This document shows positions 27,605 to 27,803 of a stretch of 64,000 bases of DNA, one piece after another. The translations under genes were made by a program, and so were the position numbers. The stretch's first letter is position 1; every line of letters begins with the position of its first letter. Origin of the DNA: Clostridiales bacterium (GTDB lineage: Bacteria > Bacillota > Clostridia > Christensenellales > CAG-138); the NCBI GenBank assembly GCA_004558525.1, contig SFCQ01000003.1:61038-125037 (forward strand), given 5' to 3'. Below the pieces are notes generated by a model. The model ran no database searches. It saw only the letters and a list, made by a program, of their open reading frames with translations, and was not told the origin of the DNA.

Positions 27605-27803
27605 CAGCCTGTCGATAAACCCCGGGGTTGTTAAGGAGCGGCTGCCCCTTAAGCTTTATTCCGGCTCTGACGGCATGTACGTCAGAACGGATGGAAACGT
27701 CAGGTTTTCGTACCTTGCGGGTTTTGCCGCCCGGGAGCGTGAGCGAAAGGCAAAACCCGTAAAAACTCGAAAAAGTGGCGTTCAGCCACTTTTTCGACAT
27801 CAG
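27605..27803 (+). mobile_element. Repeat family copy C (full length, TIR-bearing)
   Basis: Starts CAGCCTGTCGATAAA and ends TTTTTCGACATCAGA. Has the conserved core and all five hairpins. Confidence 0.85.

Follow-up and report, generated by a model that had tools for sequence, protein, structure and literature searches.

In a 64,000-nt stretch of the genome of a Clostridiales bacterium (GenBank contig SFCQ01000003.1, positions 61,038 to 125,037; hereafter 'the window'), four long copies (A to D) and two fragments of a structured repeat of about 200 bp lie in terminator zones beside host hairpins, as the original prediction, made from the letters of the window, had already recognised. That the repeat is a transposon whose insertion duplicates terminator hairpins is a conclusion that we hold to be almost certain. 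Our overall reading, to which we assign a probability of roughly 0.7, is that it is a non-autonomous transposable element of the miniature inverted-repeat type (MITE) of about 200 bp that targets and duplicates terminator hairpins and is moved in trans by a transposase of the IS1182 family.

Target site duplications

Copies C and D of the window and the copies in two other genomes (L001 and L002) were the first four intact copies examined, and all four are flanked by duplicated hairpins of 22–27 bp. Copy C (27605–27804, + strand), a full-length member of the class described below as class 1, extends from the left terminal inverted repeat (TIR) CAGCCTGTCGATAAA through five internal hairpins to the right end ...GCCACTTTTTCGACATCAGA, and is found downstream of rplT in the infC-rpmI-rplT operon, which lies on the - strand. 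Its upstream target site duplication (TSD) is the host terminator hairpin TAAAGGGCGGTATGAACCGCCCT (27582–27604), and its downstream TSD (27805–27827), TAAAGGGCGGTATAAACCGCCCT and then TTTA, is terminator-like by pattern scan; the two flanks read TAAAGGGCGGTAT[G/A]AACCGCCCT. Copy D (30983–31182, + strand) is likewise full-length, is bounded by perfect 15-nt TIRs, CAGAGTGTCGAAAAA and TTTTTCGACACTCTG (13 of the 15 positions match in L001), and is located between pyrG (+) and two tRNA genes (-). Its upstream TSD, AGGACTTGCTTATGCCAAATAC (30961–30982), is partly decayed, its downstream TSD is the hairpin AGGACTTGCTTATACCAAGTCC (31183–31204) followed by a T-run, and both sides read AGGACTTGCTTAT[G/A]CCAA... 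In C and in D, the upstream hairpin is no longer followed by a T-run.

Both flanks were available, among the matches listed, for 57 full-length copies, which come from the window and gut metagenomes and form the wider sample. Identical flanking repeats of 18–30 bp stand directly against the element in 37 of the 57, and a hairpin abuts both ends in 48, the downstream end only in seven, the upstream end only in one and neither end in one, compared with 6.5% in a random-position control. At the right ends of the metagenome loci, a host stem-loop is found 0–3 nt beyond nearly every copy among the matches listed. The original prediction had placed the 3′ end 0–5 nt from a host hairpin; the adjoining position stands, and as the duplication had been missed, the statement gave half of the picture, the whole hairpin being duplicated at both ends.

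Reconstruction of the empty sites from these 37 copies places the TSD on the dyad of the palindrome, within 1 nt, at 29 of them, and the length of the TSD tracks the size of the G+C-rich stem-loop plus 1–3 A.T pairs. Because the duplication is centred on the dyad and its length follows the stem, both strands would be attacked at an equivalent point of the hairpin, with a stagger set by structure. At 21 of the 37 sites the target has an A-rich upstream and a T-rich downstream flank, a sequence pattern that marks these targets as probable bidirectional terminators. Three clear pairs of filled and empty orthologous sites (L023 versus L131; L034 versus L070 and L096; L098 versus L133) give the same picture directly: the empty site holds one hairpin, and the filled site reads hairpin-element-hairpin.

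Two different flanking hairpins are found around 11 full-length copies (L046, L100, L068, L045, L055, L061, L072 and L040 among them). A second mode of insertion was considered for these and rejected: the mismatched flanks, where checked, are the TSDs of other loci (the upstream flank of L046 is that of L052, and the flanks of L100 are those of L098 and L114), which points to recombination between copies or chromosomal rearrangement, or else to chimeric metagenome contigs.

A fourth pair of sites differs in kind. Where L102 is filled (4178–4380), L047 (1132–1254) has no element, and its terminator hairpin there is not the host's AAAGCGGCGCTTGCCGCTT but AAAAAAGTGGCGTTCAGCCACTTTTTTGA, the 3′ hairpin of the element itself, minus the TIR tip; an excision may have left this footprint, one hairpin may have replaced another, or the element's 3′ hairpin may have come from such a source.

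Distribution, classes and strain variation

Copies are not restricted to the window. In a collection of species-representative genomes, the 36-nt core described below was found only in L001 and L002, each with different flanking hairpins (about 24 and 25–27 bp), and a metagenome scan with the right-end hairpin as query returned at least 120 loci, all of them from gut samples. At least two other named species of metagenome-assembled genomes (MAGs) and at least 120 metagenome loci thus carry copies, in unrelated flanks, which speaks against the local segmental duplication that, according to the original prediction, a lack of further copies would have indicated.

The family comprises at least two classes of about 200 bp, which agree in their TIRs, in hairpin 1 and in the 3′ hairpin and differ in their interiors. 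Class 1 is the type of the window and contains the 36-nt core; in class 2, which lacks the core and is equally abundant among the matches listed, different stems occupy the corresponding positions. The 36-nt run that had been noted as common to the four long copies is indeed exact in the window and is the most conserved block of the family; it is not invariant family-wide, however, and an abundant metagenome subfamily reads ...GTACTTTGCGGATTTTGCC... at this place. In some other gut species, represented by contigs such as OGXT01000015.1, OKSC01000038.1 and ERZ772883 NODE_47 and with element ends that read CAGAGTGTCAAAAAAGTGGC...GCCACTTTTTTGACACTCTG, copies are near-identical and polymorphic for presence, which indicates that the family has been active there recently.

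One alternative, to be weighed against this distribution, is that the repeat stems from segmental duplication (local or lineage-specific) or recombination of an intergenic segment rich in terminators. The species of the window is very common in gut metagenomes, 2,928 indexed blocks of which contain its L20 protein in exact form; in this species, copy C occupies the same site in 10 of the 10 strain contigs fetched and the copies are about 10% divergent, so that no recent movement is visible. The wide occurrence of copies in unrelated flanks, the precise ends, the different TSD of each copy and the filled and empty sites nevertheless refute this explanation, to which we attach a vanishingly small probability.

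Several further observations concern the variation of the element itself. In one strain (L005, 3358–3809, compared with window 27417–27867), copy C differs at three adjacent positions that restore the consensus hairpin 3, GAAAACCTTCAGGTTTTC, and the host hairpins on its two sides match each other exactly; either gene conversion has occurred between copies or L005 represents the ancestral state. A 45-nt two-hairpin insert, CAAGGTGAATTGCCCCGCAGGGGCAAGAGAAGGCCCCCTGGGGGG, lies exactly in the loop of hairpin 2 in copies of both classes (L050:1626–1873, L079:4624–4871, L122, reverse complement, 7332–7575, L125, reverse complement, 9387–9630, L071:201–495 and L074:2005–2299), and hairpin 4 of L071 and L074 has a further insert, of about 95 nt, in its loop; neither the 45-nt nor the approximately 95-nt inserts show a duplication. 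Three copies (L036, reverse complement, 1835–2033, L083:59–257 and L070:8893–9136) join a class-1 left half to a class-2 right half, with the junction within GGTTTTCGTAC/TTTGCATTCGG, and such chimeric sequences indicate probable recombination between the classes. Finally, stand-alone perfect palindromes of about 37–45 nt (L043:95–129, L048:1929–1963, L064:2109–2143 and window 10262–10298) consist of two TIR tips linked through the 3′ hairpin's 5-nt loop. All of them adjoin host terminator hairpins, and they could be minimal elements or remnants.

Internal structure and the question of an RNA function

The element is highly structured, with folding z-scores of -7.4 and -8.9 on the two strands relative to shuffled sequences. 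An alignment of 20 diverse class-1 copies to a structure of five hairpins and six helices has 95.2% of its cells paired. Double compensatory changes are present at 10 of the 52 stem pairs, compared with 3.5+-1.0 in shuffles, 500 of which never reach this number, and no more than 3 in slid controls, and compensatory change is found in all five hairpins; the earlier view that differences between the arms are mostly non-compensatory does not hold in this wider sample. Mismatches are of the G.U type in 8 cells and of the A.C type in 9, without strand asymmetry, and copies occur in both orientations relative to the neighbouring genes.

The 3′ hairpin, A6-GTGGC-loop-GCCAC-T6, has A and T runs on its two sides, as had been pointed out, and is picked out by the terminator pattern scan in copy C (- strand) and in copy A (+ strand); it thus matches the pattern of a putative bidirectional intrinsic terminator.

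Comparison with Rfam at the gathering threshold returned four tRNAs alone in the whole window and no family for the element. When copies of both classes were compared by E-value, only sub-threshold matches to TD-2, sraL, RNAI and sraA were obtained. The closest is TD-2 (RF03162), with 28.2 bits in copy C (window 27681–27801) and 31.7 bits in L107:2277–2394, in a region that comprises hairpin 4 and the 3′ hairpin; membership of TD-2 was rejected, as both scores are below the gathering threshold of 48.7 bits. The comparison with Rfam that the original prediction had called for gave no match at threshold.

It is against these results that a second explanation is best judged, namely that the repeat is primarily a multi-copy structured small RNA (sRNA) gene or a cis-acting RNA module, such as a portable terminator or a stabilizer of 3′-untranslated regions (3′-UTRs), the hairpins of which are kept by selection on the transcript and the mobility of which is secondary. 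The significant compensatory variation in all five stems, the conserved unpaired loop GCCGCCCGGGAGC of hairpin D, the modular stems with their 45-nt and approximately 95-nt loop insertions, the consistent, if sub-threshold, likeness to TD-2 and the terminator-like 3′ hairpin are all on its side, and the covariation, the unpaired loop and the loop insertions, which could also mean a function at the RNA level, tell against an element that is solely mobile. On the other hand, G.U-type and A.C-type mismatches are near-equal in number, so that neither strand is favoured, copies lie in both orientations, and class 2 lacks the core yet is as abundant; strand-symmetric DNA palindromes, or a bidirectional use, fit these observations better than a gene for a one-strand RNA. 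In addition, no Rfam family is reached at threshold, and the TIRs, TSDs and presence/absence polymorphism make transposition the defining trait of the family. The sRNA alternative raised in the original prediction has gained no support, and we consider an RNA of this kind improbable as the primary identity of the repeat. The description of a 'decaying mobile repeat' holds in that the element is mobile, as its TIRs, TSDs and empty sites document; it does not hold as regards decay, since the stems covary and near-identical, polymorphic copies exist elsewhere.

IS1182-like ends and the search for a partner

The comparison set of IS1182-family inverted repeats (IRs), from IS1272, ISSau3, ISClbu1 and about 35 other copies, was drawn from IS1272 of the TnSha1 plasmid, eight diverse plasmid members and about 30 members from viral contigs. 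The IR of IS1272 is GAGTCTGGGACATAAA, and its transposase matches NCBIfam NF033551 (IS1182 family) at 452 bits; the end consensus of the fetched copies is G[AG]GGCTGT..(A/C)AAAA. Nine IRs of the family were used for a position weight matrix (PWM), on which true IRs score 8.6–20.4 bits in a leave-one-out test; the three commonest left TIRs of the metagenome copies score 15.6 bits (GAGGCTGTCGAAAAA), 13.6 bits (GAGACTGTCGAAAAA) and 11.5 bits (CAGTCTGTCAAAAAA), within the range of true IRs. Random 15-mers attain 11.5–15.6 bits at 2.5e-6 to 3e-5. By this match the ends of the element appear to be of IS1182 type, and the repeat, which the original prediction had not placed in a named family, becomes placeable. 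A MITE derived from the IS1182 family is already on record: MITEPye1 of Paracoccus yeei, with 4-bp direct repeats (PMC11578231).

A number of results weigh against the IS1182 connection. The background for the TIR comparison is random sequence and not the TIRs of other IS families, and the decayed TIRs of the window itself reach only about 5 bits on the PWM. Among about 35 full-length IS1182-family copies sampled, direct repeats are at most 7 bp and none has a long hairpin TSD, and duplication of a whole hairpin is an outcome unlike that of the characterised members. The direct repeats that ISfinder gives for IS1182 may range over 0–60 bp. One report describes the action of the family as 'with or without duplication' (PMC12056078). 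An IS1182-like coding sequence, for a transposase of the NCBIfam NF033551 or Pfam PF05598 plus PF13751 type, was not found by tblastn with six IS1182 transposases in the window, where the lack of any transposase gene had been correctly noted, or in 133 copy-bearing loci (1.07 Mb), and a BLAST of the MITE against plasmid and phage collections gave no DNA match.

Other searches for the partner had a similar outcome. TIR pairs 0.45–6 kb apart at all loci represent neighbouring MITEs only, the open reading frames (ORFs) upstream of atypical right ends are host genes (a lipoprotein gene in L118, for example), and clustering of multi-copy ORFs across the loci yielded syntenic orthologues only. Scans of viral contigs for the element gave 0 and 1 hits and no autonomous partner, and blastn-short with parts of the MITE against 50 IS1182 loci gave no significant match. 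In a protein-database search for the partner, the matches listed all belong to one unrelated IS1182 lineage of gut Lachnospiraceae, at 79% identity or more.

These results lend some weight to a third explanation, that of a mobile element moved by machinery other than IS1182, such as a Cas1 or casposase-like integrase, a type of enzyme that likewise produces long palindromic-repeat duplications, an HUH/Y1 enzyme that works on hairpins in single-stranded form (REPIN/RAYT or IS200/IS605-like) or a hairpin-specific recombinase. Apart from the missing partner and the lack of hairpin-length duplications among the sampled IS1182 copies, it draws on the fact that HUH enzymes and integron integrases typically recognise folded hairpins by their structure, and that a whole palindromic repeat is duplicated by Cas1-Cas2. 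The TIRs match the IS1182 consensus at p ~1e-5 to 1e-6, though, and the IS1182 family alone is documented as choosing terminator hairpins without sequence specificity. The hallmarks of the other systems also differ: IS200/IS605 elements and REPINs have neither TIRs nor a TSD, casposons produce a fixed TSD of about 14–15 bp and integron recombination produces no duplication. A REP/REPIN-RAYT or IS200/IS605-derived palindrome was rejected in view of the TIRs and long TSDs, as were a class C group II intron, an integron attC site and a casposon, on the grounds of no TIR and TSD or of a fixed TSD. Movement by such machinery is accordingly considered unlikely, though somewhat less so than an RNA as the primary identity, and an IS1182-family transposase is preferred.

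Two features of the IS1182 family were noted in passing. Many full-length copies on plasmids and viral contigs (L136–L143 and L144–L187) sit between an A-run and a T-run, as if they replaced a stem-loop like IS1272, and the G-rich IR tips AAAGGGGCTGT...ACAGCCCCTTT, together with the A-run and T-run, make the whole IS1182 insertion sequence resemble a giant terminator stem.

Proposed mechanism and comparison with known systems

Under the preferred reading, a DDE transposase of the IS1182 family, encoded elsewhere in the genome, would act in trans on the element and would recognise intrinsic-terminator hairpins by shape rather than by sequence. Most of the targets would be bidirectional terminators that have an A-tract and a T-tract on opposite sides. 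On each target strand, one 3′ end of the transposon would attack at the 5′ foot of the G+C-rich stem, a point that is equivalent on the two strands, in a target that is probably an extruded cruciform, and gap repair would then copy the entire stem-loop and leave one hairpin at each end of the element. With attack at the feet of the stem and subsequent gap repair, the stagger would equal the length of the hairpin (18–30 bp) and not a fixed number. The element's own 3′ hairpin could replace a terminator in either direction, and insertion would therefore rarely destroy termination, so that copies would persist in convergent and terminator zones. In this scheme, we infer the identity of the transposase, the attack on a cruciform and the terminator activity.

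The closest known system is IS1272/TnSha1 of staphylococci. Its insertions occur in terminator or other hairpins of about 21–38 bp that are chosen by structure, with no sequence specificity, and the stem-loop is deleted (PMC4923244, PMC5678879). In the published model, a hypothetical pathway b with attack at the 5′ feet would duplicate the whole stem-loop. IS1272 and the MITE are alike in the type of TIR tip (GAGTCTGGGACATAAA in IS1272, GAGACTGTCGAAAAA or CAGTCTGTCAAAAAA in the MITE), in the A-run/T-run hairpin just inside the right end and in their occurrence in Firmicutes. They differ in that IS1272 is an autonomous element of 1.9 kb, with a transposase of 548 aa, and leaves no TSD, the target stem-loop being removed or replaced, whereas the MITE is 200 bp long, has no gene and duplicates the whole stem-loop. 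MITEPye1 is similar in being non-autonomous, non-coding and intergenic, with IS1182-like TIRs and predicted stem-loops (PMC11578231); it differs in its 4-bp direct repeats, its 1–3 copies per chromosome and its alphaproteobacterial host, hairpin targeting has not been reported for it, and it has no sequence similarity to the present family.

A likeness of another kind links the element to TD-1 and TD-2 of Treponema denticola, motifs that are multi-copy within one genome, with covariation, modular stems of variable length and no constant relation to genes (PMC1950547). The two hairpins at the 3′ side of TD-2 resemble hairpin D and the 3′ hairpin of the element in sequence and align with them (gcGAGUUUugcc...ggcaAAACUCg; GAAaAguG...CacUuUUC), although the TD motifs were described as candidate RNAs, are known from the spirochaete only and are matched by the element below threshold. 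TD-1 and TD-2 may perhaps be repeats of a similar kind.

Correia elements, RUP, BOX, SPRITE, ERIC and bcr1 have short fixed TSDs (TA or TTTAT, for example) or none. Like the present family, they are short, structured and intergenic, often co-transcribed and sometimes terminators, and the review of such bacterial repeats describes no element that duplicates a whole hairpin of variable length (PMC10969869). With none of the sampled full-length IS1182 copies showing it, the duplication of the whole hairpin is so far specific to this MITE family.

A functional parallel is offered by CRISPR spacer integration, in which Cas1-Cas2 attacks both ends of a palindromic unit in a staggered manner and gap repair then leaves the whole unit in two copies. 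The analogy goes no further than function, as the enzyme differs, the repeat has a fixed length, leader-proximal sequence is recognised and there is no evidence for Cas1 here.

Further copies and neighbouring features in the window

An nhmmer profile built from related copies, searched against the whole window, recovered exactly the long copies (6056–6243+, 23353–23505-, 27606–27800+ and 30984–31181+) and fragments (55542–55585 and 10261–10301) that the original prediction had located, and no others. The 36-nt core, GGTTTTCGTACCTTGCGGGTTTTGCCGCCCGGGAGC, is exact at 6152(+), 23416(-), 27703(+) and 31082(+), with a chance expectation of 0, and reading and alignment of the copies confirm the order of the hairpins and the inverted ends, those of copy D included. 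The element is 199–203 bp long, or 244–295 bp with loop insertions, and indels of 1–4 nt among the copies disrupt the reading frames, in line with its earlier description as non-coding.

Copy A (6054–6253, + strand) is near full-length, with a left TIR remnant, TTGCCTGTTGATAAG, and a decayed right TIR, CTTGTTCTTGATGCCG. A host terminator hairpin, AAAAGCCCCAATATTTGGGGCTTTTT (6030–6055), stands against its left end; there is no downstream copy of the hairpin, and the stop codon of the convergent gene begins at 6255. Homologues of this gene (window 6255–7436, - strand) in L089 and L041 have a class-2 element (about 3950–4170 in L089) at the equivalent position, where the window has class 1, which suggests either independent insertions in one terminator or a swap of internal modules. 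Copy B (23351–23505, - strand) is 5′-truncated, lacking the left TIR and most of hairpin 1; its right end, ...GCCACTTTTTAGACACTCCG, is intact, and the host hairpin AGGGACGGCTTCGGCCGTCCCT (read on the - strand; 23325–23346) lies 4 nt past it.

The left-end fragment (55532–55586, + strand) retains a TIR remnant, CAGGCTTTATAAACTAAT, and hairpin 1 (GGTTGATAAGGGGCGGCAGCCCCTTAAG...). It begins immediately after a host hairpin (55508–55531) and ends at the stop codon of a convergent gene (55580). The second fragment is the 37-nt mini-palindrome ATGTCGGAAAAGTGGCGCTCAGCCACTTTTTCGACAT (10262–10298), in which two TIR tips are joined via the loop of the 3′ hairpin, 4 nt from a host terminator hairpin (10303–10331). 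An 8-bp strain polymorphism, TAATAAGG, present or absent in the intergenic sequence between copy C and the downstream gene (window 27417–27500), is unrelated to the element.

Implications

The natural insertions described here, dozens in number and including empty sites, bear on a mechanism that has so far figured just as a hypothetical pathway within the model for IS1272, with recognition by shape and symmetric attack at the feet of the stem. They are possibly the first natural record of DDE-type transposition with a stagger set by the structure of the target and strand transfers at the feet of a terminator cruciform, a claim that we make tentatively and at odds well below even. The covariation and modular stems of the family also call for caution, because such features, often taken as evidence of a functional RNA, arise in hairpin-rich transposons too; if the reading is correct, some of the modular-stem motifs described as 'candidate structured RNA', TD-1 and TD-2 for instance, may be transposons of this kind. 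On the practical side, the repeats break metagenome assemblies and can yield chimeric contigs.

For the bacteria themselves, the reading accounts for the presence of the repeat at so many terminators in abundant uncultured Clostridia of the human and animal gut. If it is true, each insertion makes one terminator into two, placed around a portable bidirectional terminator, and the duplication of a terminator together with the addition of a bidirectional one could alter the read-through and 3′-UTR content of many operons, including infC-rpmI-rplT. Elements of this type could thus remodel 3′ ends across the genomes of gut Clostridia.

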